From the NCBI GenBank assembly GCA_964620045.1, contig CAZUJL010000011.1, forward strand, positions 31,477 through 95,476: DNA of 64,000 bases. Reading direction: 5' to 3'. Positions 36,135-62,202 of this stretch are shown here, in pieces. Positions within the stretch are counted from its first letter, which is position 1. Each line of letters opens with the position of its first letter. The DNA is from an uncultured Nitrospirales bacterium (GTDB taxonomy: Bacteria; Hydrogenedentota; Hydrogenedentia; Hydrogenedentales; GCA-2746185). The notes beneath the pieces are model-generated. The model searched no databases, had not been told where the DNA came from, and saw only the letters and a list, made by a program, of their open reading frames with translations. The translations under genes were made by a program, and so were the position numbers.

Positions 36135-36522
36135 TCGGCCAGAAAACCGCGTATTATTGGGCTTTGCGCCTTGTAAAGCCCCTGAGCCTTTGTTAGCATG
36201 AAGTCGCTGCACGGGGTTCTGCGGGCAGCGCTTCCCGGGGTTGAGATCTCCACAGGTTTGTTGGATATGTGGAGAATTGTTTGTGAATCGCACTCCAAAA
36301 ACGCGCGGTTCATCAACACGAATTCAGACCCCATGAAGCGGCGGGATGGTGGTATGGGGAGTGCGGGGAATGATCGTGCATTTTTTCCGCAAGTCATCCA
36401 CCGGCCAACCAGTGTCGCGCCATGGGGTTGGAAGGTTTTCACAATAACTCACACGACCACTACTACGATTACTTAATTTATAAATTAAGAAAAGAACCAT
36501 TACTACACGAGGATATTGTGAA

Positions 36523-37632
36523 ATGAAGATCATCATCCCGAAGCAGGATTTACTGGACGCGGTCAATAAAGTGAAGACGGTAGTGTCCGCGAAATCCGCG
36601 TTGCCGATCCTCTCTCACATCCTCATCGAAGCGGAAAAGGGAAAGATTCATCTTTCCGCGACGGATTTGAAAGTCAGTCTGGAATGCACAGTTGATTGTG
36701 AAGTGAAGAAAGCCGGTTCATTGACGGTGTCTTCACAGCGTCTTGCATCCATCCTGGCTGAGCTTCCGGATTCGGATATCACGATTGAACTGGGTGAAAG
36801 CAATGTGATTCGCATTGAATGCGGGAAAATCCACACCCGCTTGTTCAGTATGTCACCCGAAGAGTTCCCGCCCGCGCGGCAGTTGGAAGATGTGGAGCCG
36901 CTGGTTCTGCCACAGAAGTTACTCCGGGATATTTTTGAGAAGACCTCTTTCGCGATTTGCACCGACCAGGCCCGCTACAACCTTACAGGACTTTTGATGG
37001 AGCTCAAGAACGGCGTGCTTACCGCCGTGGCCACGGATGGTCGCCGCATGAGCCTTTACAAGGAAGATGAAGGCATCATCGATGGTGTCAACGTAAAGGT
37101 GATTGTTCCGGGAAAATTGATCCAGGAATTGATGCGTTTGCTGGGTGATGAAGGTGATGTGCAGGTGTATTTCGGCGAGAATCAGGCCGCCTTCGAGTTT
37201 GATTCACTCCGCTTGACGACGGCCCTTATCGAAGGTTCGTTCCCGAATTACGAGATGGTCGTGCCGCAGAAGCACGACAAACAGGCCAAGGTCGATACCG
37301 CTGCCTTTATCGAAGCGGTACGCCGTACGCGCACAATGACCAACGAAAAATTTAACTCCGTTCGCTTTAAGCTCGACAACGGACTAGTCCGCCTGAGCGT
37401 AGTAACCCCTGAAGTTGGTGAATACGAAGAAGAGCTGCAACTCGAGTACAAGGGCGACACAATCGAGATCGCGTTCAATCCTGATTTCCTGCTTGATATT
37501 CTCAAACACATCAACTCTGATTCATCCATCTTGGTGCTGAAGGACGCGATGAGCCCGGGCATCGTAAAGCCGGTGGCCGAGAACGGCACCGACAAGTACA
37601 TCAACGTCGTGATGCCAATCCGCATATCCTGA
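36523..37632 (+). CDS. dnaN: DNA polymerase III beta sliding clamp
   Basis: MKIIIPKQDLLDAVNKV...ILSHILIEA..., about 369 aa, typical DnaN. Confidence 0.9.
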   Translation: MKIIIPKQDLLDAVNKVKTVVSAKSALPILSHILIEAEKGKIHLSATDLKVSLECTVDCEVKKAGSLTVSSQRLASILAELPDSDITIELGESNVIRIECGKIHTRLFSMSPEEFPPARQLEDVEPLVLPQKLLRDIFEKTSFAICTDQARYNLTGLLMELKNGVLTAVATDGRRMSLYKEDEGIIDGVNVKVIVPGKLIQELMRLLGDEGDVQVYFGENQAAFEFDSLRLTTALIEGSFPNYEMVVPQKHDKQAKVDTAAFIEAVRRTRTMTNEKFNSVRFKLDNGLVRLSVVTPEVGEYEEELQLEYKGDTIEIAFNPDFLLDILKHINSDSSILVLKDAMSPGIVKPVAENGTDKYINVVMPIRIS

Positions 37633-37648
37633 GGGCATGTGGGAAAGT

Positions 37649-37657
37649 TGTGGATAA
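37649..37657. promoter_or_regulatory. Perfect DnaA box TGTGGATAA in the AT-rich region 3' of dnaN
   Basis: Exact 9-mer consensus, inside a 234-bp AT-rich intergenic region that also contains a nearby AAACCATT...AATGGTTT inverted repeat and a TATATATATAAATT tract. Confidence 0.4.
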
Positions 37658-37866
37658 CCCAGGTTTCATTCGGGAATATCTTGACCGTACTGCTACTCAC
37701 ACCCATCAAAATTGAAAACTACTCTGCAACACGATCACTATAAACCATTTATCATCAATGGTTTATATATATAAATTGACGCTTGGTTTTTAGACCCTTG
37801 GGATTTCCCAGCTAGCGAAGTTTTGCGTCAACTGATCATACGCGCGGTGCATAACTCCTTTAATTC

Positions 37867-40462: not shown

Positions 40463-40552
40463 GGAGAGATGGCCGAGTGGCTGAAGGCGCTCGCTTGGAA
40501 AGCGTGTGTACGTGAAAACGTACCGAGGGTTCGAATCCCTCTCTCTCCGCCA
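40463..40552 (+). tRNA. tRNA-Ser (anticodon GGA) with a long variable arm
   Basis: Manual fold: GGAGAGA acceptor, D-arm GCCGAGTGGCTGAAGGC, anticodon loop TTGGAAA, long variable arm, T-arm GGTTCGAATCC, CCA encoded. Confidence 0.8.
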
Positions 40553-40949
40553 TTCAAGGCTACGAAAATTCTCCCCTGGCGAAATGCGCCGTGACGACTA
40601 CCGAACGGCTGCATGACCAGGCGAAGAAGTTTGCTGACCCTACGCCCTCGACAGCCTAGCAATATGCCATACTGCTCTGCCGTGCAAGATGCACCAATTC
40701 CACATGCGCTAGCGGTTCCGCCAAGATGTCGCCCCAAACACCGGAAGTGCTCTCATAATGTCTATGAGACGAGGTCGAGAATGGGCAGTGGTGATCCTGC
40801 GGTGAGAACCCGCAATGATTTCCACTTTGAGGCCGGCTGTAAAGTGTGATGAACCCAAAGACAAATCTGCCACACACTGGGCGTTGCGCGTGAAATCCCG
40901 TTTAGAGTCTCTGCGACCGAAGAACGCATCAATAGGCCTCCGCGAAAGC

Positions 40950-42677
40950 ATGCCTCATGACGAATTTCTGCGGAGAATCTATATCGGTTGCGCGATTGCG
41001 GCCGTTGCCACGAAGATTTGGCTTACCTTGGCGTTTCAGATGCGTGCCGCGAATACGCCGGCCGATGATCTGTTGTATATGCGGTTAGCAGAGCAAATTC
41101 TCCATGGCGAGTGGCTCGGCCATTATGATCAGTACACGCTGGCAAAAGGACCGTTCTTTTCCATCTGGATTGCCGGCGCGTTCCTTCTCAATATTCCGCT
41201 GTTATTGTCCTACCAGCTTCTACATGCCTTGGCGTGTGTGCTGATGATAATCGCGCTCATGCCGTTACTTCGCCCAAGATTCCTCTGCTTGGCGCTCTTT
41301 CTGTTGCTCCTCTTCGATCCGTCTACATACAGCCCGATCGCATCATGGGTAATCCGTGAAAGCATCTATGCTTCTCTGACGATGATGGTTTTGGCGGGAA
41401 TGATCGCGCTGATTGTGAGACTCGAACGGCGTCCCGGCGCGCTTGTGTTTTGGGCTATCGAACTTGGGATAGCTGCCGGCGCATTTGCAACGTTGCGCGA
41501 AGAGGGCGTTTGGATACTGCCCGCGGTAATATTGGCGTTGCTCTACGCCACGATAATGATCTGTCGTACGGACCGACAAAGGACTGCGAAGTTGGCACTT
41601 GTTTTCATGCCCGCTGCAATCGCGGTCGCATGGGTTCTCGGCATCTGCACGCTAAACCAGCGCTATTACGGAATATTCGAGGTAACCGATTTTAAGAGCG
41701 AAGGCTTCTTGCGAGCGAACGGAGCGCTGATGCGCGTGAAGCATGCCGAAATAAACCAATTCGCGAATGTGCCCAAAGAAGTACGAGAAAAAGTATATAA
41801 GGAGAGCCCCACATTCGCCGAGTTAGAAGTTTACCTTGAGGGTCCCTTGGGGCAAGCGTGGGGAAAGATCTCGGAGAAATGGCTCTCCGGAGGCACCCCC
41901 AACGCGGCCGATATTCGCGGCGGTTTCTTCGTGTGGGCCATGCGCGACGCGGTCGGGAGACTGGGCCATTACCAAACGGCCGCGGAAACAGACGCCTATT
42001 ACACGAAAGTGGCAAACGAAATTAATTCGGCTTGCGACGCGGGCAGACTTGATTGTTGGGCGGAGCGTTCGTCCCTTTTGCCTCCCTGGCGCCGCAGTTT
42101 ATTTACACCCGCAATCGCGAGCATTCGTAAGGGAGTTCGCATGGTGGCAACGCTCGACGAGCTTGATCCGGGTAACATGCCCACGCAAGGGTCCGCCGAT
42201 ATTGCGGTTATGTTCGAGGATTTGGGCCGTTCGCGCCTTAGCCCGCGGGTGTTTCATTCTGAGGAGACTCCGCGGTTAGCAAACCAAGCGCAATTGGACA
42301 AATTTCGATTCGGGGTATTGAATCGGTTGAATCATGCGTTCCGGGTCTTATGGCCTTTCGCGACGGCTGTTGGCTGCTTGTCCTTTCTAATTGCTTGCGT
42401 GATCGAGGTTCGGGTGCGCACATTCGATCCCGTTTTGCCCATTCTCATGGTTTTGATTGCGTCTTTCGCCGCCCGATTGGGAATTCTCGCGCTGGTTTCC
42501 ATCACCTCGTTCGAAGCCATGCAATATCGCTTGCTGCTGCCCGTGTATCCCATGGTGATCCTGTTTTGGTTTCTTTCGACGTATCGCGCGGGAAAGCTCG
42601 GCATTTCGCACCTTTCTGCCGCGCGACGGAGTAGACGCGAAGATGAGAAGTCGGAATTGTCGTCCCGTGCCGGATGA
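40950..42677 (+). CDS. GT-C fold membrane glycosyltransferase (ArnT/PMT-like)
   Basis: A first-loop acidic motif ADDLLYMRLAEQILHGEW resembles ArnT DExRYAEIxREML. Multiple TM helices. About 52% GC. The start could be as early as 40815. Confidence 0.5.
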   Translation: MPHDEFLRRIYIGCAIAAVATKIWLTLAFQMRAANTPADDLLYMRLAEQILHGEWLGHYDQYTLAKGPFFSIWIAGAFLLNIPLLLSYQLLHALACVLMIIALMPLLRPRFLCLALFLLLLFDPSTYSPIASWVIRESIYASLTMMVLAGMIALIVRLERRPGALVFWAIELGIAAGAFATLREEGVWILPAVILALLYATIMICRTDRQRTAKLALVFMPAAIAVAWVLGICTLNQRYYGIFEVTDFKSEGFLRANGALMRVKHAEINQFANVPKEVREKVYKESPTFAELEVYLEGPLGQAWGKISEKWLSGGTPNAADIRGGFFVWAMRDAVGRLGHYQTAAETDAYYTKVANEINSACDAGRLDCWAERSSLLPPWRRSLFTPAIASIRKGVRMVATLDELDPGNMPTQGSADIAVMFEDLGRSRLSPRVFHSEETPRLANQAQLDKFRFGVLNRLNHAFRVLWPFATAVGCLSFLIACVIEVRVRTFDPVLPILMVLIASFAARLGILALVSITSFEAMQYRLLLPVYPMVILFWFLSTYRAGKLGISHLSAARRSRREDEKSELSSRAG

Positions 42678-42777
42678 TGGGCATCAGAATCCACTCATCG
42701 GCTAGTGAGCACGTGTTGTAGTATTCGAACTCGTTACTTGGTTCTGCGTGGATCTCTGAGATTCTTTGCCAACTCCC

Positions 42778-43947
42778 TCAATGTACGGCGATTGGCGGCG
42801 TCGCGGTCTCGTGAAGGTCTGTCAGAATCGCTTGAGCGATGTAGCCGCCGGCGACGCTGGCGCCCTGCGCATTAAAGTGGCAGTCGTCAACGAAAAACTC
42901 GGCGCGGCCGTTCATAAACGACAGATCGACGATAGGCGCTTCCATTTCGCGGCAAACCTGCAGACTGACTGAGTTCAGCATGTCCGCCAACTGCCGAAGA
43001 CTGGACGTGCTCAGAAACTGGCCGGCAATCGCGGTTCGTCCGGTCCAGATGCGGCGTTCGTCCTCCTCCGGCAAATCATTTGCCCAGAGCACGGCTTGAG
43101 TCACGAATACCGGCCTAATCTTCAGCCGCTTGCACGTCGAAATAATCGCTTCTATAGTCGATCGATACTCTCGCAAGAAATCCTGTGGCGATGGAAAGTC
43201 ATCCACTAGAACCGATGCCGTACTGTTCCCAAACAGGCCTAAGCGGGCGCCGGTCATCAGGGCCGGCGGTGGATTTCCGCGTGATGGGGGCGCAGGGGCA
43301 CCACCTTCAGCCCCGCGCACGTTCGCGCCGACCCACGCGAGCACATCGTTTATTCCGATCAGGAAGACAAGGTGGGTATACCGGGGCACGGAAGCATCCG
43401 TATGTAGGTATTCCAAATGGTGTTTCGACAAGTACCCCGGGATCCCCGCACCTCCGACCCAGGCCGGGCTTGCAGGCAGGCGCCGATTCATTTCATTCAT
43501 GACAACATGAGTCCATGCTTCTGAATCGTCGAGATAGGCGCACTGCGTGACGCTATCGCCGACACACAGTATGCGATACAGCTTCTCTCGATTGAACTCG
43601 GGACCACGGATTCCTTCCGAATTTGTTGAGTAAATGCGCCGTGGCGTTTCGTGGAGACCCGACAGGCTGATCGACAGATTTGGCGTGACAAAGTGGAATT
43701 TCGGCTTTGGTGCGCTAACGAGGTTCCATCGGTCGCTGAACGTAAAGTGCCGATCGACAAAAATGCCATATCTCAGGGGAGCAAGGCGTAAGGAATCGAT
43801 GCTCCACGTCCAGACGGGGAATTTTGCCTTTGGGGTGGGCGAGGATTGCGTTTGAGTCTGGACGTACCACACTGACGGGAGCAGCAGAATAACCAGGAAT
43901 CCTGCGATCCGCGCGATGTATATAAACTTGAGCAAGATTGAAGGCAT
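42778..43947 (-). CDS. SGNH/GDSL hydrolase (polysaccharide O-acetyl transferase/esterase-like, AlgJ/PatB-like)
   Basis: N-terminal TM anchor, then the block I motif LCVGDSVTQ, block III LIGINDV and block V DDCHFN (DxxH). Confidence 0.6.
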   Translation of the reverse strand: MPSILLKFIYIARIAGFLVILLLPSVWYVQTQTQSSPTPKAKFPVWTWSIDSLRLAPLRYGIFVDRHFTFSDRWNLVSAPKPKFHFVTPNLSISLSGLHETPRRIYSTNSEGIRGPEFNREKLYRILCVGDSVTQCAYLDDSEAWTHVVMNEMNRRLPASPAWVGGAGIPGYLSKHHLEYLHTDASVPRYTHLVFLIGINDVLAWVGANVRGAEGGAPAPPSRGNPPPALMTGARLGLFGNSTASVLVDDFPSPQDFLREYRSTIEAIISTCKRLKIRPVFVTQAVLWANDLPEEDERRIWTGRTAIAGQFLSTSSLRQLADMLNSVSLQVCREMEAPIVDLSFMNGRAEFFVDDCHFNAQGASVAGGYIAQAILTDLHETATPPIAVH

Positions 43948-43950
43948 CGG

Positions 43951-45429
43951 TTAGAACCGGAAATAGATGAAGGGGTTCTCGCGCTGTACACTTAGCAGGA
44001 TGCACGACAGCACGAGTATGCCGAATACGAACATCGTAATCACCAATTGACTTGATGCTGCGAGCACCGTGGCCGTAGAGCCCTGAGCGCGCTGTATCCG
44101 GGTTTCGATCCATCTCCCCGCGGTCGGCGCCCAGGGGGTGGACCCGATAATTCCGAGTGCGAGCGCCAGCCAGATCTGGTTGTTCCAAAACTCATTGAAT
44201 GGCGGCTCGCCGGGAACGGCCAACTTCAAGCTGAACATTGCGCGCAGAAATACTCCAATTTGCGAGAACGTCTCGGCACGAAATATCAACCATCCAAAAA
44301 ATACCACGGAGAGCGCGTAGACGTGCCGCACAGGCGCCCAGAACCGGTCCATGAAAGCGAGCGCACTCGATCGCTCCAAGACGAGGAAAACCCCGTGGTA
44401 CAGTCCCCAGGTAACGAAGGTCCAACTAGCGCCGTGCCACAATCCACACAAGAAAAATACGATCATAAGATTGAGATAGGTCCGCACGGTTCCGCCTCGA
44501 TTGCCTCCGAGCGGGACGTAGAGGTAATCCCGGAACCAGGTGGACAGCGAGATGTGCCAGCGCCGCCAGAACTCTTGCACGGATTTGGAAATATAGGGGT
44601 AGTTGAAGTTTTCGAGAAAGTGGAACCCGAACATTTTGCCGAGTCCGATGGCCATGTCCGAGTAACCGGAAAAATCGAAATAGATCTGGAGCGTGTAGCA
44701 AAGTACCGCGAACCACGCGAGCCCCGTAGAAACCCGCTCGTCGGGTAACGCGAAAATCTGATCGGCCGGGCCGGCCAGGGCATTGGCGATGATGACCTTC
44801 TTTCCCAACCCGAGGACGAATCGGCGGACGCCCTCGGAAAATACTTCGATCGACACCTTTCGCTCTACGAGGTCACCGGCGACCTGAACATAACGAACGA
44901 TCGGCCCCGCGACAAGCTGCGGAAACAGGCTCGAGTAGGTGGCGAAGTTGATGAAGTTCCTGGTGCGGCGCACATCGCCGCGATACACGTCGATGACGTA
45001 GCTCATGCCGTGGAATGTGAAAAAGCTGATGCCCAGCGGCAAGGTCACACGCATTGGATCGTCAAGAATTAGTGTCCGGGCGTCTAGCCCCGCCACGAAC
45101 GCATTCCATGAGTCAACAGCGAAATTGAAGTATTTGAAGAAGGCCAGTAGTGCGAGATTTGCCGCGATCGTGATTGCTAGCGCGAAGCGACGTCGACGCG
45201 AACCTGCGTTTCCAGAAACCGGATCGCCGATGGCAAGACCCGCGACATAGTTGATCGCGATCACCAGGAGAAACAATCCGACGAAAAAAGTCTCCCCCCA
45301 AGCGTAGAAGAGAAGGCTCGCCAGCAACAGCAGGGTGTTGCGGAGTTTGCGCGGCGCCAGGTAATAAAGCACCAGAACCGTCGGCAAAAAAATAAATAGG
45401 AACAGCTTGGAACTGAATACCAACGCGTT
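43951..45429 (-). CDS. MBOAT-family membrane-bound O-acyltransferase (AlgI/PatA/DltB-like)
   Basis: VFSSKLFLFIFLPTVLVLYY N-terminus typical of AlgI, and a conserved His-containing C-terminal half. TTG start with GGAG upstream is proposed; the ORF tool extends it to 45483. Confidence 0.7.
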   Translation of the reverse strand, partial: NALVFSSKLFLFIFLPTVLVLYYLAPRKLRNTLLLLASLLFYAWGETFFVGLFLLVIAINYVAGLAIGDPVSGNAGSRRRRFALAITIAANLALLAFFKYFNFAVDSWNAFVAGLDARTLILDDPMRVTLPLGISFFTFHGMSYVIDVYRGDVRRTRNFINFATYSSLFPQLVAGPIVRYVQVAGDLVERKVSIEVFSEGVRRFVLGLGKKVIIANALAGPADQIFALPDERVSTGLAWFAVLCYTLQIYFDFSGYSDMAIGLGKMFGFHFLENFNYPYISKSVQEFWRRWHISLSTWFRDYLYVPLGGNRGGTVRTYLNLMIVFFLCGLWHGASWTFVTWGLYHGVFLVLERSSALAFMDRFWAPVRHVYALSVVFFGWLIFRAETFSQIGVFLRAMFSLKLAVPGEPPFNEFWNNQIWLALALGIIGSTPWAPTAGRWIETRIQRAQGSTATVLAASSQLVITMFVFGILVLSCILLSVQRENPFIYFRF

Positions 45430-45671
45430 TCTCCTGAACGGCTGTGCCGCGCAACCGACGGATGTCAGAGCATGGAGGCGCAACGCGGCCGAACGATGTG
45501 TTGGAAATCAGTCTCGCGTCGACAATGTCCGCCCGGGTGCTCTGAGCGCAGTCCGAAAGTATACTCGAATTCAGAGAATTGGACGGCAGAGAAGAGTTCG
45601 AGCGCAACTCGCTACACAGCCATACACACGCCTCTCATCCTTGCTGACGAGTTCGGCCGCGCAGGACGCTT

Positions 45672-48206
45672 TTATTGCGCGGCGTTCGGCGCGGCGCTGA
45701 GCTTTTTCCAATCGGATTCGCTGATCGGCTTGGTGAAGTTTTTGTTGGGCAGCTTTTTGTTGAGTATCGCCTGCTCAATCGCGTCGTGCTGATCCACGGG
45801 GTAGTGAATAAGGTAAGGCATGCAGGAAACTTTTTGGGCGTTGTACACCACATTACGCTGAAATATCTCGGTGTACGGAATGCGGCCGCTGTTGCTTACT
45901 TTGTTTGTGAAGATCCCCAGCCCGAACCCAGAGCCGAGATCGCGCGGCATCGAGTAATCCAGCACGGTCCGGTCGTCCACCACGGGTGGAATTCCTTCCA
46001 CAAACTTCGCCAGTTCGGGCGGGCCGAACAGGAACATCGCGAAAATATCCTCGGGTGTGTGAAGTTGACAGAATTCCATGTCGCGTCGAATGCGTGGCGC
46101 GGACATCTTTTCCTGCACGCGTGTATAGTCCAGGCGGAGCGGCTGCTTGCCGCTGATCAGCAATGTGGGCCCCACCCACGTCAATTGCCGCCACACGGTT
46201 CCTTCCGGAAAGACTTCGTAGAACGATCGAAACAACATCTTCTCCTGTTCCAGCGGGCCCTCTCCCGTCGGAATCCAATGCATGAAAATGCCGTCGTCGT
46301 TCAGACGCTCGCGCACCAGTTTGTAAAACTCCGTCGTGTACAGGTTGATCACGCCCGCGCTGAACGTATCGGGCGGTTCCAGCAGGATCACGTCATATTT
46401 CGACTCGGTCGCCATGATGAAATTTCGGCCGTCGTCGATGATCGTGTTCACCTTCGGATTTTTCAGCACATTGTCGTTGGTCCAGAAATACGGCGCGGCA
46501 TCAAGCACGTGCGGGCTCAGCTCCACGCTGTCTATTCGTGTGAGCGAATCGTGCGACGCCGTCGCCGAGAGGCTGTTGCCGACGCCAAAACAGATGTGCA
46601 GCGCGGTTTTCGGCTCGCCCGGGTGCAACAGCACAGGCAGGTGTCCCAATAGAAAATTCCATTGGTACGACCACGTCGAGGCGGTGCCGCGCATGTCCTC
46701 ATACATGATGTGGCGCTGGCCGTCTGACTCCAGCACCCCCACCGTATCCGTCGCGCCTTCCTTGTAAAACACCAAGGCGGAATCGGCCCCCGACATAAAC
46801 CCCACGATCTTCGCGGCTGACCGCTCGAAGGTAGTTTTGAACACATCGCTTCGAACGGTGGCGATGATCGAGACGGTCCCGATTACGGCCACCGGAACAA
46901 GCGCGATCCGCGCACGTTTGAGGCCAAATTCGGCGATCAGCAGCAACGCCGCGACGGTGATCGTGCATCCCGTCAGCACGGCCACCGTGCTGCTCATTCC
47001 GATCGACGGGATTAGTACGAAGGTCGCGACTATGCTTCCAAAAATACATCCCAGCGTGTTGACCGCGTAGATCGTGCCCACGGTGGCGCCGACGCCGGTA
47101 TTGTTTCGTACGCAAATGTCCGTGGCGGCTGGAAGCGCGGCCCCCAAGCACACCGCCGGCAACAAAAACACCACCATCGCCGACAACGACAGCATCCCCA
47201 CGGTTTCGCTGAACGAATTAATTTCGCCGCCGGTGAATCGCGCCGAGATCGCGGGGAGATCGGCAAATAACATCAGCGAGATCACGAATCCGATCGCCAC
47301 GCCAAATTCCAACAATGCGAACAACAGCATGGGCCGCTGCTTGCGAAGCGGCAAGCGCGGGTACAGCGCGCTGCCAATGGCCAAACCCGCCAGGAAGACG
47401 GTGAGTATGGTCGAAAATGCGTAGGTGCTGTTGTAGACGTACCGCAGCAGCGCGCGCGTCCACAGGACTTCGTGCGCCAGCGATACAAATCCTGAAACGC
47501 CGGTCGCGATCACGGTGACCCGAACCGCAAACGCGGAAAGCGGAACCAGTTGTGTGTCCGATTGCGAGGGAGCTGGTGCAACAGTCTCGCGATCCCCACG
47601 CAGACCGCTCCACAACAGCAAGGGGCCGGCTGCCAATGCGAAATTGGTGATAACCGCCACCCGTGTCGTACCGGTGTTGCCCAAATATTCAATGAGGTAG
47701 AAACCGGCCAGTGCGCATCCGGCCACGGCCCCGGCCGTATTCACGAAATAGAGCATCGCGATTCGGTTGGAGATTTCGCGCTGCGATCGCACCAGAAACT
47801 TCGCGAGCACGGGCAATGTTCCGCCCATCAGGATTGTCGGCGGCAATAGGACCAGACACACAAGCAACGCTCGGCCGAGCACGAGCCCGCTATGGGGCAG
47901 GTCGAGTCGATACAGGTGGATGTACGGCGTCCGCAGCAAACCGAATAAGTCGGCAACAAAAAAACCGTACACGCCGATGCCGATTTCCAGCAGGGCATAC
48001 ACGAGAAGCGGATTCTGGGTGCGATCAGCCACCCGCCCAAACAGCCGGCTGCCGATTGACAAGCCACCCATGAACACCGCCAGCACCGTCGCCATGGCGT
48101 AGGTTGTCGCGCCGAACACGACGGACAACTGCCGAATCCATACGATTTCGTATACCAGCGAGGCTGCGCCAGATAGGAAGAAGATCGGGAAAATCGCCCA
48201 GCGCAT
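45672..48206 (-). CDS. Fused polytopic membrane (MFS-like) / spermidine-synthase-like (PABS aminopropyltransferase fold) protein
   Basis: About 12 TM helices, then a PABS-like domain (ICFGVGNS...VELSP...DVILLEPPD). 844 aa. Confidence 0.6.
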   Translation of the reverse strand: MRWAIFPIFFLSGAASLVYEIVWIRQLSVVFGATTYAMATVLAVFMGGLSIGSRLFGRVADRTQNPLLVYALLEIGIGVYGFFVADLFGLLRTPYIHLYRLDLPHSGLVLGRALLVCLVLLPPTILMGGTLPVLAKFLVRSQREISNRIAMLYFVNTAGAVAGCALAGFYLIEYLGNTGTTRVAVITNFALAAGPLLLWSGLRGDRETVAPAPSQSDTQLVPLSAFAVRVTVIATGVSGFVSLAHEVLWTRALLRYVYNSTYAFSTILTVFLAGLAIGSALYPRLPLRKQRPMLLFALLEFGVAIGFVISLMLFADLPAISARFTGGEINSFSETVGMLSLSAMVVFLLPAVCLGAALPAATDICVRNNTGVGATVGTIYAVNTLGCIFGSIVATFVLIPSIGMSSTVAVLTGCTITVAALLLIAEFGLKRARIALVPVAVIGTVSIIATVRSDVFKTTFERSAAKIVGFMSGADSALVFYKEGATDTVGVLESDGQRHIMYEDMRGTASTWSYQWNFLLGHLPVLLHPGEPKTALHICFGVGNSLSATASHDSLTRIDSVELSPHVLDAAPYFWTNDNVLKNPKVNTIIDDGRNFIMATESKYDVILLEPPDTFSAGVINLYTTEFYKLVRERLNDDGIFMHWIPTGEGPLEQEKMLFRSFYEVFPEGTVWRQLTWVGPTLLISGKQPLRLDYTRVQEKMSAPRIRRDMEFCQLHTPEDIFAMFLFGPPELAKFVEGIPPVVDDRTVLDYSMPRDLGSGFGLGIFTNKVSNSGRIPYTEIFQRNVVYNAQKVSCMPYLIHYPVDQHDAIEQAILNKKLPNKNFTKPISESDWKKLSAAPNAAQ

Positions 48207-48349
48207 GGGAAATGCACCTCCAAATGTGCGCCGGATTTCGGTAATAGGCGCGATGCATGCTGTGGCGCATGCAGGAAGCGGATTTAATCACGGGCACGCG
48301 TGGCATCGCAACTACAAAATGAATCAAACAACAGCCGTGCGTGGCGTCA

Positions 48350-49516
48350 CTATTGGATGATTTCGGTTGTCAGCGTGCCCAGGCGGTCGATGTGAATCGA
48401 CACGGTGTCGCCGGGCTTCAGGTAGCGGTCGTTCTTCTTTTCCGTGGCGATATACGATTCGATGACGTGGTCGGTAACGGGTTTTCCCCAGCCTCCGGCG
48501 ACCCAATGTAAAAGGCCGGATGCCATGGCGGATTTTGGGATTCCGTCGAACACGGTGCCCGCCGGGGTGCCGGCCAGGATCAGCGTGCGTGCGGGGATCG
48601 CGCCATTTACCACCGGCAGTTGTGCAGTCTCGCCGTTGTAGTCCCACCGTGCGTCCTTGCGCGCGTCCGTCTGGCGCAGCAGCTCGGCGATGTCCCAAAT
48701 TGCCAGTGTCATATTGGCCTGCTGGCGCAATTCCTCATTTACGGCCAGCCTCAGATTCAGTGCGCTCGCGAAGGCCTCGAGATCGCGCGGAATTACAAAC
48801 AAGTTGCCGACCGGCAGATACCCCGGCGCGCTTTTGCCGGTGGTGAATCCGTCGCCCGAGGTCACGTCGTCGGGATTCACGTGACGCAACAATGCCGCGC
48901 GGTTCGTGAAGTCGTTCACGGCGATCAGACCCATGTGCTTGGGCGTCCCGGGCAGCGGTGTGTCGTTCAGCGTTACAAACGCCACTTCGACTTCGTAGTC
49001 GAGCAGCGCGTCGCCCGCCGATACCGGTGCGCGGAAGGGGGTCGGCTCGACGAGTTTCGCGAACAGGAAAGGGCCGTCTTCGACTTCGGATTCTTCCGCG
49101 TGCTCGGCGAAGTTTGTTCCCGCGGCCACGTGTGCGCTGGTCAAATCGACCGGCAGGATTAGCGATTCCAGTGGCACTGTTGCGGACGCGTGTGCGAACG
49201 CCGCCGCGATCCGGGCCTGCAGTGCGTCGTACCCGAATCCGTTGAAGGCCGCGATCGGATCGGTGTACTCCGGCCCCAGCTCTTTCGTCAGATTGACCGC
49301 TGTTACCTCGTTGTTCTCGGCCTTGCTGACCGCGAGCAACTGAATGCCGCCATCGGCCTGTATGCGCGCAAAGGTGAGCGCCTCTTCGAGCGGCGCAATC
49401 GCGATGGAGTGTGGAAAGTTCGCGGCCGTGTGTGTTTCCGGCTCACCAGAACACCGCGCGAGCAGCGCAATCAGGCTCATCGTTGCAACGATATTTCTCA
49501 TGGACTGGCCTTTCAT
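48350..49516 (-). CDS. Fumarylacetoacetate hydrolase (FAH)-family protein with a lipoprotein-type signal (LLARCSG)
   Basis: C-terminal FAH-fold pattern (…ILAGTPAGT…PGDTVSIHIDRLGTL…). Confidence 0.55.
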   Translation of the reverse strand: MKGQSMRNIVATMSLIALLARCSGEPETHTAANFPHSIAIAPLEEALTFARIQADGGIQLLAVSKAENNEVTAVNLTKELGPEYTDPIAAFNGFGYDALQARIAAAFAHASATVPLESLILPVDLTSAHVAAGTNFAEHAEESEVEDGPFLFAKLVEPTPFRAPVSAGDALLDYEVEVAFVTLNDTPLPGTPKHMGLIAVNDFTNRAALLRHVNPDDVTSGDGFTTGKSAPGYLPVGNLFVIPRDLEAFASALNLRLAVNEELRQQANMTLAIWDIAELLRQTDARKDARWDYNGETAQLPVVNGAIPARTLILAGTPAGTVFDGIPKSAMASGLLHWVAGGWGKPVTDHVIESYIATEKKNDRYLKPGDTVSIHIDRLGTLTTEIIQ

Positions 49517-51261
49517 CGGTTGATCGTTTCGCTGCGCGCGGACTGCGCGGTCGCGGCGTCCAAAATCGCCTTCAACGTTTCGTCGTCACAAACACTGCTT
49601 GTACCCCGCCACGCGATGTGACCATCCGGGCGCACCAATAGCACCTGATCCGGCGGAAAGAGACCCGGCGGATATTCGGAGCTATCGACGACGTGAATAG
49701 TTGAGCTTTTATCCACGCCAGAATGGTGTTTTGTGGTTAATAGGCTGAATCTCGTGTAGCACAGGTCGTCGTGCACGGCGCGCCGTCCATTCGCCGTGAC
49801 AATCCATCGATGCGGCAGCCGCGCTCCGGGCATTGTGCTTGGGATGTATTCGGCCACGTCGTTCAAGGGCGCTGCATGGGCGCTACCATCTGACAGCAGC
49901 GCGCCTTCACTGTAGACATATCCGATATCCAGTCCTAGCCGATCGAAGTGATTTGTCTGTTCGGCGATCGCCGCAGCCACACGCTCGCGCCGCGCGCCCG
50001 GCCGCAACGCCCTTCCGATCAGCCAGTACACGGGCCGCGTCACCGCGCGCTTTGCGATCCCTCGAAGGCGCGCCGGCAACGCGCGCATCAGCCGCGCGAG
50101 GTGTTTCATGCCGCCCGGATCGATGCCGAGCGCACGAATCACGTCGAACATTTTTTCGAAATTGGTGTGGCTCTCCGCGCAGTTTTTCTGCGCCACGGGC
50201 CGCCGTTCGTGTTCATAGGTATCCAGCAGCGCATCCCCCGCGCCGCCCGCCAGCACGAGCCCGAGTTTCCACGCCAGGTTGTGCGCGTCGCCGATGCCGG
50301 TGTTCATGCCGAGCCCGCCTGTGGGCGGGAATCGGTGTGCCGCATCGCCCAGTAGAAAGACACGTCCGCGGCGATAGCGTTCGGCCACCTGCGCCGTCAT
50401 GCGCCAGGTGCTCAGCGAGTGGACCTGCACATCGGGCGCATCGAACCCCAGCGCGCCGGCAATGCGCGCGCGCATGACGTCCTTCGTAAAATCCTCTGGC
50501 TGCTCCCAAGGCTGTTCGACCGGCACCGCATACACCCAGCGCTTTTCCATGTGGTGCGCGATAAAGGCCCCTGCGTATTCCGGATGCATGATCCAGTACA
50601 GCTTGGCCGGCGTGCGCACGCGATCGCGCAGATTGGCGTTGAAGAACGCGTTTACGAAGGTCTGAATTTCGGCCGGGCCATCCATGGCAATTCCGGCTGC
50701 CTGTCGAACGCGGCTCGAAGCGCCGTCACAGCCCAGTAGATATTGCGATTGGATCGTGTACGGCGCGTCGGACTCGACGACACTGCTGACATACGTGCTG
50801 GCGCTTTCATACGAGGCCCACTTATGCCCGAACCGCAGGTCAATCAGCGGGCATTGCCGTGCATGCGCGACGAGAATTTTCTCGAACTCAGACTGAGATA
50901 GGTTCAGGTACGGCAGCGTTTGCCGCAGATTTTCTTCGTACTTACGCCGGCGCGCGGGGTCGGCCAGCAAATCGATCCGGCCCAGTTCTTCGTTGATCGT
51001 CCTGCAGAACAGCACCCGCGAGGCATCTTCGAGCGGCGAGGCCTCTGCCGCCAGCTCCTGCTCTGCAATGCCGGCGTCGCGCAGGATCTCGATCGAGCGC
51101 GCGTTGATCTCATGCGCTTTGGGGTGATCGATCGTCTCCGTATTGCGCTCGACGACGATGCTCCGCACGTTCCACCGCGCCAGCAGCAGCGCCGTCACGA
51201 GCCCTGAAGGCCCGGCGCCGGCGATGAGGACATCGGTGGCTTCGGTGCGGCCGCTCGTCAC
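49513..51261 (-). CDS. FAD-dependent aromatic-ring monooxygenase (PHBH/PheA-like)
   Basis: DVLIAGAGPSGL dinucleotide-binding motif, GDAAHRFPPTGGLGMNTGIGDAHNLAWKL motif, and a C-terminal thioredoxin-like extension. Confidence 0.75.
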   Translation of the reverse strand: MTSGRTEATDVLIAGAGPSGLVTALLLARWNVRSIVVERNTETIDHPKAHEINARSIEILRDAGIAEQELAAEASPLEDASRVLFCRTINEELGRIDLLADPARRRKYEENLRQTLPYLNLSQSEFEKILVAHARQCPLIDLRFGHKWASYESASTYVSSVVESDAPYTIQSQYLLGCDGASSRVRQAAGIAMDGPAEIQTFVNAFFNANLRDRVRTPAKLYWIMHPEYAGAFIAHHMEKRWVYAVPVEQPWEQPEDFTKDVMRARIAGALGFDAPDVQVHSLSTWRMTAQVAERYRRGRVFLLGDAAHRFPPTGGLGMNTGIGDAHNLAWKLGLVLAGGAGDALLDTYEHERRPVAQKNCAESHTNFEKMFDVIRALGIDPGGMKHLARLMRALPARLRGIAKRAVTRPVYWLIGRALRPGARRERVAAAIAEQTNHFDRLGLDIGYVYSEGALLSDGSAHAAPLNDVAEYIPSTMPGARLPHRWIVTANGRRAVHDDLCYTRFSLLTTKHHSGVDKSSTIHVVDSSEYPPGLFPPDQVLLVRPDGHIAWRGTSSVCDDETLKAILDAATAQSARSETINR

Positions 51262-51725
51262 TGCGCGGCAGCCCGAATGCGGGGCTCAACGCGGAAAAAC
51301 AGCAGGCCCAGCGCCACTATATAAAACGTGCTCAGCACGCCGAACACGAAGACGTTTTCGTCGATGCCGAGAATGGGGATGTGCTCGTGCGGCACTGTGA
51401 CCATGCCGTCGTATTGCGGCGCCCACACCACGGCGAGCCAGAAGCCCAAAAAGTTCGTCGCCAGCCACGCGAACGAGGTGTACAGATGGATCAATCGCAG
51501 CGGTCGCACGAACCAGATCAGATAGACGTTCGCGATTCCAGAGAACAGGAAGAACCCGAGCAGCCACATCATGTGCACGCGCGCGTGCCCGACCCAGTCT
51601 GGATTAAACAAGTGCGACTGCGAGTAATCGCGGCCCCACGGCCCGAAGAACTCGAACGCGCAGACCGTCATTAAAATGCGAACCAGCAACAGCCCTTTTA
51701 CCGGCCCTTTAATCGCCTCATACAT
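51258..51725 (-). CDS. Small membrane protein (4 TM), unknown function
   Basis: Overlaps both the tetR stop and the monooxygenase start; hydrophobic profile. Confidence 0.5.
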   Translation of the reverse strand: MYEAIKGPVKGLLLVRILMTVCAFEFFGPWGRDYSQSHLFNPDWVGHARVHMMWLLGFFLFSGIANVYLIWFVRPLRLIHLYTSFAWLATNFLGFWLAVVWAPQYDGMVTVPHEHIPILGIDENVFVFGVLSTFYIVALGLLFFRVEPRIRAAAQ

Positions 51726-52395
51726 GCGTGGGTGTCTCCTGGTTTAGCGATCCTTGCGCGAGCAGGCAATCGAGCATGGCCAGCACCACCGCCACATGCC
51801 GCTGTACAAAAGCCTCGTCGGTTACGTTCTGATTGAACAGCGCCTTCACTTCGCCCGGCAGCGAGAACACCATGTTGCACGCGCCGAGCAGCGCGTACCG
51901 CACGTGCGGGTCGTTCTCCAGCAACGCGAGCACCGGGTCGACCGCGCCGATCTGCCGGTTCAGTTCACGCAGCGGCCGCAGAAAGTTTTCGATCACCCAC
52001 TGCGTGCGCCACGACGGCGCCGCGTTCTCGCGGATCATGAGTTGATTGAGGTGCGGCGCCTCCGCCGAGGTGCGCACGAATCGTTCGATCAAAAAGCGCA
52101 TGCGCGTGCGGCCGTCGAGCGCGCGCAGCAATTCCACCTGTCCGCGCAGCGCGTCGAGGTACGGCAGAAATGAAAACGTGAACGCCGCCTTCCAGATGTC
52201 CTCCTTGTTGCCGAAGTGATACGTCACCACGCCGCGATTGACGCCAGCGGCCTGCTCGATGTCGCGAATGCCGGTGCCGTCGTAGCCCTGTTCTGCGAAC
52301 ATGCGCGTGGCGACACGCAAAATTTTTTCGCGCGTCTGTCCGCCTTTTGTGGACGCCGCATCGAGCGGCCACTCTGCAGTACTTGTGTTCGACAT
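51718..52395 (-). CDS. TetR/AcrR-family transcriptional regulator
   Basis: HTH region ILRVATRMFAEQGYDGTGIRDIEQAAGVNRGVVTYHFGNKE. Confidence 0.8.
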   Translation of the reverse strand: MSNTSTAEWPLDAASTKGGQTREKILRVATRMFAEQGYDGTGIRDIEQAAGVNRGVVTYHFGNKEDIWKAAFTFSFLPYLDALRGQVELLRALDGRTRMRFLIERFVRTSAEAPHLNQLMIRENAAPSWRTQWVIENFLRPLRELNRQIGAVDPVLALLENDPHVRYALLGACNMVFSLPGEVKALFNQNVTDEAFVQRHVAVVLAMLDCLLAQGSLNQETPTHV

Positions 52396-52502
52396 CGAGG
52401 TGCTCCTTGGAAGAATTTGTATATAGTATAGTAAATTTATACGAGATGCAAGTATTTTAATAGACGCAATAAAGTTAATTGAATCAATAGGTTATGAATG
52501 GG
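52396..52502. promoter_or_regulatory. AT-rich (about 30% GC) promoter/operator region upstream of the tetR-led operon
   Basis: GTATATAGTATAGTAAATTTATAC-type imperfect palindromes read from the sequence, in an otherwise 65% GC context. Confidence 0.35.
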
Positions 52503-53282
52503 CTACGCCCGGCGAATTGTCAGGCCGCCGTCCACGGGCAGCGCGATCCCGGTAACGAACGAGGCCGCCGGCATGCAGAGGCTCAGCGTCATGTGCGCGA
52601 CTTCTTCGGGCTCGCCGTAGCGGCGCAGCGCGGTGCGACGCCGCGCGTAGATCTGCTTTTCTTCGTCGCCGATGCCCGCCGTCATACCGGTGTTGACCGG
52701 TCCCGGGCAGATTGCGTTCACCGTGATGCCTTCCTTGCCAAGTTCAATCGCGAGGCTGCGCGTGAGTCCGATGACGCCCGTCTTCGCCGCGGCGTAGGCG
52801 CTGTTGCCGCCCGTCGCGCCGAGGCCTTCGGTGGACGCGATATTCACGATGCGCGGATGCTCCGCCTTGCGCAGGTGCGGCAGCACTTCGCGAACGAGCA
52901 ACACTTGTGCGGTGAGCAACACGCGGTGTGTGAGCTCCCAGATCGCCATATAGTTGTCGGTATCGACCGGCGTCGGCAACGCAATGCCGGCGTTGTTCAC
53001 CAAAATATCCAGCCCGCCGAATTCGCGCACGACCTCAGCGACGACTTCGCGAATGCGCTCCGGCTTCGACACATCCAACGCCCAGGCCTTCGCCTGACCA
53101 CCCGCCGCGCGAATCTGCGCCGCAACGTCTTCGGCGCCGTCCGCGTGCATATCGGTGACGGCCACCCGCGCGCCTTCGTCGCCAAACAGCATCGCGGTCG
53201 CCCGCCCCATGCCGCTCGCGCAGCCGGTAATCAGCACGCGCTTTCCGGCAACGCTGCGGCTCAGTTTCGACAATCGCGGCAT
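52503..53282 (-). CDS. SDR-family oxidoreductase
   Basis: KRVLITGCASGMGRA (Rossmann), NNAG, and the YAAAK (YxxxK) catalytic motif. Confidence 0.8.
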   Translation of the reverse strand: MPRLSKLSRSVAGKRVLITGCASGMGRATAMLFGDEGARVAVTDMHADGAEDVAAQIRAAGGQAKAWALDVSKPERIREVVAEVVREFGGLDILVNNAGIALPTPVDTDNYMAIWELTHRVLLTAQVLLVREVLPHLRKAEHPRIVNIASTEGLGATGGNSAYAAAKTGVIGLTRSLAIELGKEGITVNAICPGPVNTGMTAGIGDEEKQIYARRRTALRRYGEPEEVAHMTLSLCMPAASFVTGIALPVDGGLTIRRA

Positions 53283-53284
53283 GG

Positions 53285-54094
53285 TTAGGCCTCCGTCTCG
53301 TACTTCGGTTTCCGCTTCTCGGTGAATGCCCGCGCGCCTTCGCGGAAATCGCCGCTCATCACGGCCAGCGTCTGCGTGCGGTTTTCCATGAACAGCGCGG
53401 CCTCGAGGCTCTGCGCGTCGATCGACTGGTTCAGCACTTCCTTCGTCATTCGCAGGCCAAACGGCGCCTTCTCAAGCATGATGCGCGCGGTCTCCAGCGC
53501 GGCATTCACCGCCTCGCCGTCCGGCACGACGCGCGACACATACCCAATCCGCTCGGCCTCGGCCGCCTCCATCGTGCGGCCCGTGTACAGCAGGTCCGCC
53601 GCGCGCGACAGTCCAATCAGCCGCGGCAGGAAGTACGTGCTGCCGATCTCGCCGGAGCTGAGCCCGATGTTGATGTACGAGCATACGAACCGCGCGCTTT
53701 GCGCCGCGATGCGGATGTCCGCCGCCATGGTGAGCGAGAAGCCGCCACCGGCCGCGACGCCGTTGATCGCCGCGATGATTGGCTGCGGGATCCGGCGCAT
53801 GTGCTGCACCATGTCGGCGATGTACCGCTGCGAACTCGTTTGCTTGGACACGTTCATCGGTTCGCCGTCCGCGCTGCGGCTCGATTTCAGGTCCGTGCCC
53901 GCGCTAAATCCGCGGCCCGCGCCGGTGAGAATCACTACGCGCACGCGGTTCGACGATTCGAACTCCGTCAAGCACGCGTGGATTTCTTTCACGGTTTCGT
54001 AATCAAACGCATTCAGCCGATCCGGCCGGTTGATGGTCACCACGGCGATGCCCGGCTCCGGCTCCTGCACCAACAGCGATTTGTACGTAGTCAT
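53285..54094 (-). CDS. Enoyl-CoA hydratase/isomerase (crotonase) family
   Basis: VVTINRPDRLNAF...VILTGAGRGFSAGTDLK and the AAINGVAAGGG oxyanion-hole motif. Confidence 0.8.
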   Translation of the reverse strand: MTTYKSLLVQEPEPGIAVVTINRPDRLNAFDYETVKEIHACLTEFESSNRVRVVILTGAGRGFSAGTDLKSSRSADGEPMNVSKQTSSQRYIADMVQHMRRIPQPIIAAINGVAAGGGFSLTMAADIRIAAQSARFVCSYINIGLSSGEIGSTYFLPRLIGLSRAADLLYTGRTMEAAEAERIGYVSRVVPDGEAVNAALETARIMLEKAPFGLRMTKEVLNQSIDAQSLEAALFMENRTQTLAVMSGDFREGARAFTEKRKPKYETEA

Positions 54095-54217
54095 GCGGCC
54101 TCCCTTTGCAACCCGCGCGCACTCTAGCCCGCGTCCCGGCCAAACGCAATCGTCCTGCGGATACCTTCGCCCGCCATCTGATAGTCTCTCTAAAATCCGC
54201 AATTCGGAGGACCGCGC

Positions 54218-61084: not shown

Positions 61085-61523
61085 CGCGAATCCTCCGAGG
61101 AAAAAGTATATCCCTATTTAGCAACGACGATGCCACGAAATTTTCACACGATCTACGCTAAAACGGGCTGTTTTTAAAATCCCCGCGTGCCTTGGTGCCA
61201 CGGAAGACACCCTCCCGTAAGTTTCGCACAGCGAGCTACCGCCGGGTAGAAAAAGCGCACGCGGCCGATCTGGAGTTTGTTGAAATTAGAGCTATATAAG
61301 CATAATAGTATTTATGTATAGCTCGAAAATCGGCGATTTTTGGCGGTCTGTCGCAAACGGGGGCAATATTTTGAGGAGTATCCTGCGTGGAAGTGGCGCC
61401 TTACGTGAATAACTTGGGGATAACCGCACTTTTTGGTCGACGAATGGTGCTTGGGGCGCCAGGTAGGGCTAGTTATAGGGGCGATTCTCCCTATTTTGGC
61501 TGATTTGGGTCTGTGGTGCCATT

Positions 61524-61532
61524 TGTGGATAA
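61524..61532. promoter_or_regulatory. Perfect DnaA box TGTGGATAA in the 480-bp AT-rich non-coding region beside rsmG (a second box-like TGGGGATAA at 61415..61423)
   Basis: Exact consensus 9-mer read from the sequence; the region 61085..61563 has no convincing ORF and is AT-rich. Confidence 0.4.
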
Positions 61533-61563
61533 GTTGGGTGCTTCGATGGGTTCCACGTGGAAC

Positions 61564-62202
61564 CTAGCGGGTTAGTCTATAGAGCTTGCCACGGCGCAGC
61601 CCGCTGCCTTCGAAGGCATCATGCACCGGCACGCACTCCGTTACCCCATGCACGCCGGCTGTCGCAGCCTCTCGTTGCATCAAGTACACGTCTCCGGGCC
61701 GCAATTGCTTTATTAGTTCAGAGTCGAAGGCTTCAGGGCGTTCCACGGCTCGCGCGGTATAGATGCGGCCCTTCGGGGCGTCGAGTTGTAGGGGATATTG
61801 GCCTGCCACCACATGGCCCGAGGGCAGGTCGAGCGCCCTCAGCGCCTGGCGTAGATAGTCGGACTTCCGTTCGGAGCGTTCGACCAACCATACCGCCCGG
61901 TCCCCCAGCGCGACAGCGATTGGTAGGGCGGGGAATCCTCCTCCCGATCCGATATCGACATAGGCCAGATCTGGTCGGCCCTGGATCTCTGGACAGAGGG
62001 TCAGCGAATCGGCGATATGCTCGTCGAAGCGTTCACCGAGGTCGCCTTTGGACATCAACTTCGCGGCAAGGTTCCACGTGGAACATAGCCGATGGAAGAC
62101 CTCAATCCGCGCCAGGAAGGTATCGTGATCAATATCAATCCCGAGCGACAGGAGGACATTAAGGGCCTTGGTGGTTTGAGGAAAGCCATAGGAAGAAATC
62201 AT
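61564..62202 (-). CDS. rsmG: 16S rRNA (guanine527-N7)-methyltransferase RsmG (GidB)
   Basis: STWNLAAKLMS...DIGSGGGFPALPIAVAL SAM-binding motif; the start (ATG 62202 or TTG 62262) is uncertain. Confidence 0.75.
   Translation of the reverse strand: MISSYGFPQTTKALNVLLSLGIDIDHDTFLARIEVFHRLCSTWNLAAKLMSKGDLGERFDEHIADSLTLCPEIQGRPDLAYVDIGSGGGFPALPIAVALGDRAVWLVERSERKSDYLRQALRALDLPSGHVVAGQYPLQLDAPKGRIYTARAVERPEAFDSELIKQLRPGDVYLMQREAATAGVHGVTECVPVHDAFEGSGLRRGKLYRLTR

Follow-up and report, generated by a model that had tools for sequence, protein, structure and literature searches.

Which genes make up the block that follows tRNA-Ser(GGA) in contig CAZUJL010000011.1, and did they arrive there together? 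We analysed a 64-kb window of this contig (the whole stretch of 64,000 nt, with positions counted from its first letter). A preliminary description of it had read positions 40553–48340 as one horizontally acquired module, in which a GT-C fold glycosyltransferase, an SGNH hydrolase with a transmembrane (TM) anchor, an MBOAT acyltransferase and an 844-aa fused membrane/spermidine-synthase-like protein would glycosylate and O-acetylate a lipid-linked cell-surface polymer. The four open reading frames (ORFs) lie where they had been placed, and ARAGORN and Rfam put the tRNA directly upstream of them (Table 1). Our analysis points to a different arrangement. The block is probably three separately distributed cell-envelope units, which stand at the start of a variable segment of ~20.8 kb beside tRNA-Ser(GGA). 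The genes themselves are of known kinds: a member of a widespread GT-C family without a curated model, a canonical MBOAT-SGNH cassette and a native NF037959 protein.

Results

The window-specific segment starts at the tRNA and is longer than the GC dip

Relatives of the locus were fetched via asd, the gene by the tRNA. The best relative, L006, is contig VFKU01000161 of a metagenome-assembled genome labelled Rhodothermaeota; the next-best matches are Hydrogenedentota, with 76–78% identity. L006 shares the gene order T2SSE ATPase (89% protein identity), dnaN (88%), epimerase (68%), asd (83%), thioredoxin (84%) and tRNA-Ser(GGA) with the window. There the tRNA is followed directly by rsmG, apgM (80%) and a LeuA-like gene, whose counterparts in the window lie at 61.6–64.0 kb. 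In blastn, nucleotide homology between the two ends exactly at the 3′ end of the tRNA (40552) and is back at ~61405–61566, by rsmG. The window-specific segment is therefore ~20.8 kb long, with 14 genes, and not 7.8 kb. The four-gene block is indeed missing in L006, yet the missing stretch is wider than had been claimed.

Two other relatives differ at the same place. L007 has the same pair of thioredoxin gene and tRNA-Ser, followed by quite other genes (GT9, M20 peptidase). L009, from a Hydrogenedentota locus, has no tRNA at asd and carries an MFS/spermidine-synthase gene and a GFO/IDH/MocA gene nearby. The 3′ end of tRNA-Ser is a recurrent synteny breakpoint.

Pfam annotation of the 14 genes in 40.5–61.4 kb revealed no integrase, transposase or recombinase. 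Repeats of the tRNA-Ser 3′ end were searched for on both strands of 40.5–62.5 kb with a 26-mer (≤3 mismatches) and with 16–30-mers (3–9 mismatches), and none was found; general repeat finding over the same interval gave chance-level families only. The earlier observation that integrase and tRNA-fragment repeat are absent was thus borne out across 40.5–62.5 kb, direct repeats included. Rfam detected three tRNAs and no other RNA element in the whole window. When 40553–45600 was compared with plasmids, the conserved MBOAT core alone was matched, at 64–73% identity, and the surroundings of the best match gave no clue.

Like tRNA-targeted islands, the window-specific DNA starts exactly at a tRNA 3′ end, and codon usage is deviant in its first three genes, which encode surface-modification functions. 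Unlike such islands, it lacks an integrase or any other mobility gene as well as a direct repeat of the tRNA 3′ end, and ~15 of its 20.8 kb are compositionally native. A classical integrase-borne island is not supported.

Codon usage divides the block

A fall in GC from about 65% to 50–55% over 7.8 kb had been described. The dip is real, but its size was overstated and it is not of one kind. Block 40553–48340 has 56.1% GC, compared with 62.9% in the window outside 36.0–48.3 kb, and lies ~2 standard deviations (sd) under the average of 61.6% (sd 2.7%) over all 7.8-kb windows. Inside the block, 1-kb windows range from 54.1 to 59.1% GC and 400-nt windows from 52 to 61%. The flanks range from 59 to 68% and show no flat 65%.

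The GC content of third codon positions (GC3) is largely independent of amino-acid content. With 43 window genes as the baseline (mean GC3 0.775, sd 0.060), only the GT-C and SGNH genes depart clearly in GC3; the value is mildly low in the MBOAT gene and native-like in the 844-aa gene (Table 1). The codon-usage distance of the GT-C gene is topped in the window by one 178-aa ORF only. All of the GC deficit of the 844-aa gene falls at codon positions 1 and 2, because of the amino-acid content of a membrane protein. The ten genes that follow in the segment have z values of −0.6 to +0.9 for GC3. The split by gene therefore limits atypical codon usage to ~40.8–45.5 kb. An artefact of amino-acid composition was also considered for the whole dip; GC3 led us to reject it for the GT-C and SGNH genes, whereas for the 844-aa gene we accept it.

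Table 1. Positions and codon statistics of features at the tRNA-Ser(GGA) locus.
Feature	Coordinates	Strand	Description	GC3	z	Codon-usage distance
tRNA-Ser(GGA)	40463–40552	+	ARAGORN; Rfam 57 bits; left edge of window-specific segment
GT-C fold, ArnT-like membrane glycosyltransferase	40815–42677	+	620-aa ORF (ORF620)	0.61	−2.7	0.48
SGNH/GDSL membrane-anchored acyltransferase partner	42778–43947	−	389 aa; PF13472 46.5 bits	0.64	−2.3	0.39
PatA/AlgI-type MBOAT O-acyltransferase	43951–45423	−	490 aa; PF03062 103 bits (cut-off 27)	0.70	−1.2	0.32
Conserved leader/promoter region of cassette	45424–45569	−	~146 nt
Fused MFS-like + spermidine-synthase-like membrane protein	45672–48206	−	844 aa; NF037959 163 bits (cut-off 40)	0.746	−0.5	0.23 (ordinary)
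Rest of window-specific segment	48350–61084		Absent between tRNA-Ser and rsmG in L006; composition native-like
Right edge, L006 homology resumes	61405–61566		DnaA box and parS-like palindrome; just downstream of rsmG (61564–62262, −)

The four genes are distributed separately

The MBOAT and SGNH genes travel as a unit with sharp borders. This cassette (42812–45569, 2.76 kb) is 81.9% identical over 2,769 nt to its counterpart in L172, leader included, and the homology halts at both cassette ends, short of the 844-aa and GT-C genes. At L170–L172 the MBOAT protein is 83% and the SGNH protein 78% identical to that of the window, and the flanks are RND-efflux and radical-SAM genes. The pair occurs a third time in L165 (76% and 57% identity). 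Its GC content is alike in the window and L172 genomes (55.7–56.7%). In the fetched loci we found no shared housekeeping genes by which the distance between the window organism and the L172 organism could be calibrated. The L172 genome carries the pair on its own, with a GT-C homologue (50% identity) ~130 kb off on the same 380-kb contig.

Linkage was tested by tblastn of the window proteins against 82 GT-C loci, 79 of them metagenome loci. A homologue of the window MBOAT was near a GT-C gene only in L104/L105, which is one independent case. No match to the window SGNH protein was found near GT-C in these loci, and the sole match to the 844-aa protein was a weak partial one in L002 (27% over 117 residues). 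In the window itself, the GT-C gene points towards the other three and is not co-transcribed with them. One four-gene module, as first proposed, is not supported, given the rarity of MBOAT near GT-C, the lone pair in the L172 genome and the native codon usage of the 844-aa gene. For the GT-C protein and the MBOAT-SGNH pair, participation in periplasmic glycosylation and in the O-acylation of surface glycans has good support.

The closest GT-C subfamily (53–56% identity; L002, L003, L168 and the P0002 contig) has a conserved cluster of its own. It encodes two membrane proteins like sulfatases or phosphoethanolamine (PEtN) transferases, an aryl-sulfotransferase-like protein (PF14269), the GT-C protein and methyltransferases. 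The cluster spans 3675–12451 of L002, where there is also an asparagine-synthase-like gene, and 820–12143 of L168. It may represent an undescribed envelope-modification pathway.

The MBOAT-SGNH pair is of the PatAB/AlgIJ type

The start codon of the MBOAT gene is TTG 45423, preceded by an AGGAGA Shine-Dalgarno sequence. Codon and ribosome-binding site are conserved in L172, and the start agrees with the 490-aa NCBI model; the ORF that reaches 45483 (510 aa) is an upstream extension. The SGNH gene begins 3 nt past the MBOAT stop.

The assignment to MBOAT was right, on its PF03062 score and a conserved His. This residue, His330 (490-aa numbering, in LCGLWHG), is invariant in 10 homologues and aligns with position 336 of DltB (6bug), which we take to be the catalytic His. 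An RWH motif is conserved as well. The protein ends in NPFIYFRF, a copy of the FxYxxF motif, with a TM helix at 481–499 just ahead of it. All ten homologues, from several phyla, end in NPFIY[FW]xF. In PatA, the Tyr of the FxYxxF hexapeptide is auto-acetylated from acetyl-CoA, and the acetyl group is handed to the SGNH partner PatB (PMC12148441). The motif is fused to MBOAT in all acyl-CoA-type MBOAT-SGNH systems; in the Dlt system it is on the microprotein DltX (PMC12148441).

DltB is the best match of the MBOAT protein among solved structures (E 1e-26) and shares its core motifs. Unlike the DltB/DltD/DltX/DltC system, the shuttle motif here is on the MBOAT C terminus and not on DltX, and there is no DltA, DltC or DltX among the annotated genes of 36–62 kb. 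The pair is therefore of the PatAB/AlgIJ type and not Dlt. A Dlt D-alanylation system was ruled out on the same missing genes and because TIGR04091 gave 160, far under its cut-off of 375.

In the SGNH protein, a single TM helix at the N terminus is followed by a linker of ~100 residues with little structure and then by the SGNH domain at 125–370. Ser132, N200-D201 and D354-x-x-H357 are invariant in 4 homologues, with Ser132, Asp354 and His357 as the catalytic residues. Its description as an SGNH protein with a TM anchor was correct: the PF13472 match, the single helix and the triad are all there. The structure model, from a 4-sequence alignment, is weak (pLDDT 58), and in Foldseek it matched SGNH/GDSL esterases throughout, with PatB at rank 36 behind generic esterases. 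The subtype of this partner and its target are therefore not assignable from the model. At the sequence level, no match to the structures of PatB, AlgJ, AlgX, DltD or WssI was detected.

As in the PatA/PatB, AlgI/AlgJ and WssH/WssI pairs, the MBOAT and SGNH genes lie side by side and almost abut, the MBOAT protein has the conserved His and extra C-terminal TM helices ending in FIYFRF, and the SGNH protein has an N-terminal anchor, a linker and an intact triad. Unlike those pairs, the window pair has no ape1, algF/algX, cellulose synthase or alginate synthase gene nearby.

The GT-C protein belongs to a large family without a curated model

The likely true start of the GT-C protein is Met47 at 40953, which gives 575 aa, as in the NCBI gene model. 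An AlphaFold2 model from a 22-sequence alignment (pLDDT 88.4, pTM 0.86; low confidence for residues 1–45) has a multi-TM GT-C fold that is GT-C_A-like, with ArnT as the best structural match. In the family alignment D84 is invariant and D85 is at least 90% conserved, just after TM1, and R228-E229-E230 is invariant. The acidic motif sits in the first extracytoplasmic loop after TM1. The stretch DDxLFxxLAExILxGxWLGxY...KGPFYSIW presumably resembles the ArnT/PMT loop motif, a resemblance that we do not count as a test. With a confident model and conserved acidic loop residues, the GT-C fold had been correctly assigned.

No Pfam model matched any of 22 family members, even at E≤1, and no NCBIfam model matched ORF620. 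A PDB sequence search with the family profile gave no match. The protein thus fits the fold class and falls into no curated sequence family (PMT_2, GT83, GT39, DUF2142 etc.). The family is large. We found 451 relatives in metagenome contigs, and a full HMMER scan gave 5,031 clusters at 50% identity (E≤1e-3), or 2,951 at E≤1e-30. Many members have 1,000–1,490 aa, and their GT-C domain is duplicated or lies at one end or the other. In eight long proteins (1,000–1,300 aa) the fusion partners had no Pfam domain and gave no Rosetta-stone clue.

A GtrB/ArnC-like GT2 gene (PF00535 and GT2_TM_C, C-terminal TM helices) adjoins the GT-C gene in 54 of the 82 fetched loci, in most cases as the next gene upstream in the same orientation. 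A few loci encode a small membrane protein that looks GtrA-like by eye from its sequence, without a Pfam check. Three-component systems for periplasmic glycosylation, with a GT2, a flippase and a GT-C protein, are established (PMC11127046). The GT-C/GT2/GtrA-like neighbourhood is the signature of such a system. The GT-C protein is predicted to use a polyprenyl-phosphate-sugar as donor and to glycosylate an acceptor in the periplasm. No GT2 homologue of that kind is encoded in the whole 64-kb window, so the GtrA/GtrB/GT-C system is incomplete at this locus.

The family is like ArnT (GT83) and the GtrABC/GT136 system in its GT-C_A-like fold, in the invariant acidic residues of the first extracytoplasmic loop and in its family-wide GtrB/ArnC-like GT2 neighbour, occasionally with a GtrA-like small membrane protein. 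Unlike them, the window protein has no sequence match to any Pfam, NCBIfam or PDB GT-C protein, and it has an extracytoplasmic insert of ~200 residues (~290–500) before the last TM helices. The partner GT2 gene is not adjacent in the window, nor in the closest GT-C subfamily.

The 844-aa protein is probably not a canonical aminopropyltransferase

The 844-aa protein was rightly described as a fused membrane/spermidine-synthase-like protein, as its match to NF037959 shows. It has ~12–14 TM helices, a SpeE-like domain (PF01564) at 519–642 and an extra C-terminal region of ~170 aa. Only this subfamily model exceeded its cut-off; the SpeE equivalog models scored 66–99 bits against cut-offs of 250–472. 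The Rossmann domain aligns with SpeE of T. maritima (1inl) over ~165 residues. Unlike SpeE aminopropyltransferases, the protein has CFGVG in place of GGGDG and so lacks the aspartate of this motif, and it has Glu (E610) at the catalytic D170; D173 is kept as D613. The GGGDG aspartate presumably selects decarboxylated S-adenosylmethionine. Since this cofactor-motif aspartate is lost and D170 is replaced, the protein is probably not a canonical aminopropyltransferase. The searched literature contained nothing relevant on the function of fused MFS/spermidine-synthase proteins. A homologue with 33% identity lies 3 kb from asd in L009. The 844-aa gene is probably not part of the acquired piece.

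Other features of the window

The remainder of the segment was annotated with Pfam. Its first part (48350–54202, − strand) is a catabolic-looking run of native composition, with genes for a TetR protein, orf155, an FAD aromatic-ring monooxygenase, an FAH-family hydrolase, an SDR and an enoyl-CoA hydratase. The + strand ORF at 52494–53288 is a shadow of the SDR gene (52503–53282, −). The segment also encodes a DUF4838+PA14 protein, a TAT GFO/IDH/MocA oxidoreductase, a HEAT-repeat protein and an aminotransferase.

Near the right edge there is a perfect DnaA box, TTATCCACA, at 61524–61532. By the general parS consensus, parS-like palindromes were found at 61549–61564 (GGTTCCACGTGGAACC) and 62070–62085 (GGTTCCACGTGGAACA), with 4 strand-matches against 0.46 expected. 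The box and the palindromes all adjoin or lie inside rsmG. The DnaA box and a palindrome are also conserved in the spacer between tRNA-Ser and rsmG of L006. Together with dnaN, 24 kb away, they suggest an origin- or partition-proximal region. The rsmG of the window (61564–62262) is only 41% identical to that of L006 (8482–9147), compared with 80–89% for the neighbours; it is either unusually divergent or not orthologous.

The dnaN gene (36523–37632) also has low GC (51%; GC3 0.65, z −2.1), and the spacers on both sides of it (36200–36520 and 37633–37866) have 45–49%, with DnaA-box matches at 36268 and 37649. GC is low in the 88%-identical dnaN of L006 too, so this is an old lineage feature and not a recent import. 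Instead of dnaA, dnaN has genes for a sugar epimerase and a PilB-like T2SSE ATPase as its neighbours. Two ORFs without a Pfam match, at 7545–8273 (−) and 8224–8760 (+), have GC3 of 0.64 and 0.63 (z −2.2 and −2.5). They abut tRNA-Arg(ACG) at 8835–8911, which makes them the second compositional anomaly beside a tRNA gene in this window.

Discussion

The three units can be described as follows. Unit 1 is an orphan ArnT-like GT-C protein that most likely uses a polyprenyl-phosphate-sugar donor at the periplasmic face, with a glycan or lipid as the acceptor of the sugar. The donor would come from a GtrB/ArnC-like GT2 encoded elsewhere. Unit 2 is the MBOAT-SGNH pair, a self-contained cassette of two genes for O-acylation, whose motifs were observed and whose chemistry is argued by analogy with PatA/PatB. 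The conserved His of MBOAT would move a short acyl group, probably acetyl, from cytoplasmic acyl-CoA (probably acetyl-CoA) onto the Tyr of FIYFRF. The SGNH protein would then take the acyl group on Ser132 and pass it to an extracytoplasmic polymer or glycan. Unit 3 is a native fused MFS/spermidine-synthase-like membrane protein whose cofactor motif lacks the aspartate usual in aminopropyltransferases.

Units 1 and 2 (~40.8–45.6 kb) were probably acquired laterally, possibly by separate events. A lateral origin is proposed for these two only, because foreign-looking codon usage is confined to them. Horizontal acquisition, as first suggested, is therefore kept as likely for ~5 kb and three genes, given their composition and their absence at this tRNA in three related genomes. 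It is not kept for a 7.8-kb block: the gap is 20.8 kb, the 844-aa gene is native, and no mobility gene or att repeat accounts for the gap. In the remainder of the 20.8-kb segment, genes were probably rearranged, or gained or lost at an earlier time, at a synteny breakpoint beside the tRNA.

Several observations weigh against separate units with a lateral origin. Low GC3 can stem from weak expression instead of foreign origin. With a single close relative, insertion here and deletion in L006 cannot be told apart. The 82% identity of the cassette could reflect vertical inheritance together with local rearrangement. In addition, L104 is a rhamnan-type polysaccharide cluster that combines GT-C, a GtrB-like GT2, MBOAT (42%), an AlgX/DHHW-type SGNH-like protein and several methyltransferases; this gene combination in L104/L105 makes joint action on one polymer plausible. 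The cluster of the closest GT-C subfamily also contains an 837–840-aa membrane protein with a central SpeE-like domain and no Pfam hit, and one contig of that subfamily encodes an SGNH protein as well, a loose echo of the gene set in the window. The resemblance between the 840- and 844-aa proteins, 27% identity over 117 residues with another domain order, looks like a lead rather than a link.

How far do these points carry the alternatives? That all four genes form a single horizontally acquired module, which glycosylates and O-acetylates one lipid-linked surface polymer, appears unlikely to us. The four genes are adjacent and all encode envelope or membrane proteins, L104/L105 unites GT-C, GT2, MBOAT and an AlgX-like protein in one polysaccharide cluster, and the closest GT-C relatives lie two genes from the SpeE-like membrane protein. 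Against this, the codon usage of the 844-aa gene is native (z −0.5), the homology of the cassette with L172 ends before the 844-aa and GT-C genes, the L172 genome keeps the pair alone with GT-C at a distance, and transcription of the GT-C gene converges on that of its three neighbours. The 79 metagenome GT-C loci lack any match to the window SGNH or 844-aa protein; across all 82 loci, the 844-aa protein has only the weak partial match in L002, where the domain order differs. We also find it improbable that there was no lateral acquisition, with 40.5–61.4 kb being ancestral and deleted in the L006 lineage, and with the dip due to membrane-protein composition and weak expression. This would agree with the 844-aa gene, whose GC deficit is wholly at codon positions 1 and 2, with L009, which has an MFS/spermidine-synthase-like gene and a TAT GFO/IDH/MocA oxidoreductase gene within 3 kb of asd, and with the lack of mobility genes and att sites. 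It does not agree with GC3 values 2.3–2.7 sd low in the GT-C and SGNH genes, nor with the codon-usage distance of 0.48 for the GT-C gene. Moreover, three related genomes differ in the genes right after the tRNA or by asd, and the cassette keeps its 55.7–56.7% GC in a second genome with other flanks.

A narrower alternative concerns the target of the cassette, which could be a PatA/PatB-type peptidoglycan O-acetyltransferase and not a modifier of exopolysaccharide or O-antigen. We regard this as doubtful. The architecture is that of PatA/PatB, with extra C-terminal MBOAT helices and FxYxxF, and with an SGNH protein that has a TM helix and a dispensable linker of ~110 residues. At L170–L172 the pair occurs without polysaccharide synthesis genes, which fits a universal substrate such as peptidoglycan, and PatB is among the Foldseek matches. 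However, FxYxxF is common to all acyl-CoA-type MBOAT-SGNH systems and does not discriminate, PatB ranks only 36th, after generic esterases and with a weak SGNH model, and there is no sequence-level match to the PatB, AlgJ, AlgX or DltD structures. The ape1-like esterase gene that the layout of OAP clusters would call for is not adjacent. There is also a slim chance that the GT-C family, with its ~5,000 clusters, could found a new CAZy family and that its closest subfamily points to an undescribed pathway of periplasmic decoration. That subfamily has left the GtrB-like partner and recurs with large membrane proteins that have a degenerate SpeE-like domain, and with sulfatase/PEtN-transferase-like, aryl-sulfotransferase-like and SGNH proteins. 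The decoration would then be other than simple sugar and acetate, for example aminoalkyl, methyl or sulfate, and the window genes would be a variant of it. Among these readings we prefer three separately distributed units at a tRNA-adjacent breakpoint.

The practical value of the finding is modest. For genome scans, it means that a GC dip over membrane-protein genes needs a split by codon position before an island is called, and that synteny can shift island borders far, here from 7.8 kb to 20.8 kb. The locus offers a clean example of a portable MBOAT-SGNH O-acylation cassette, 2.76 kb long with its own leader and FxYxxF motif, in a Hydrogenedentota-like candidate-phylum lineage. It also brings to notice a large and widespread GT-C family without a curated model. 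Because this family is strongly linked to GtrB-like GT2 genes, its general function can be predicted and tested.

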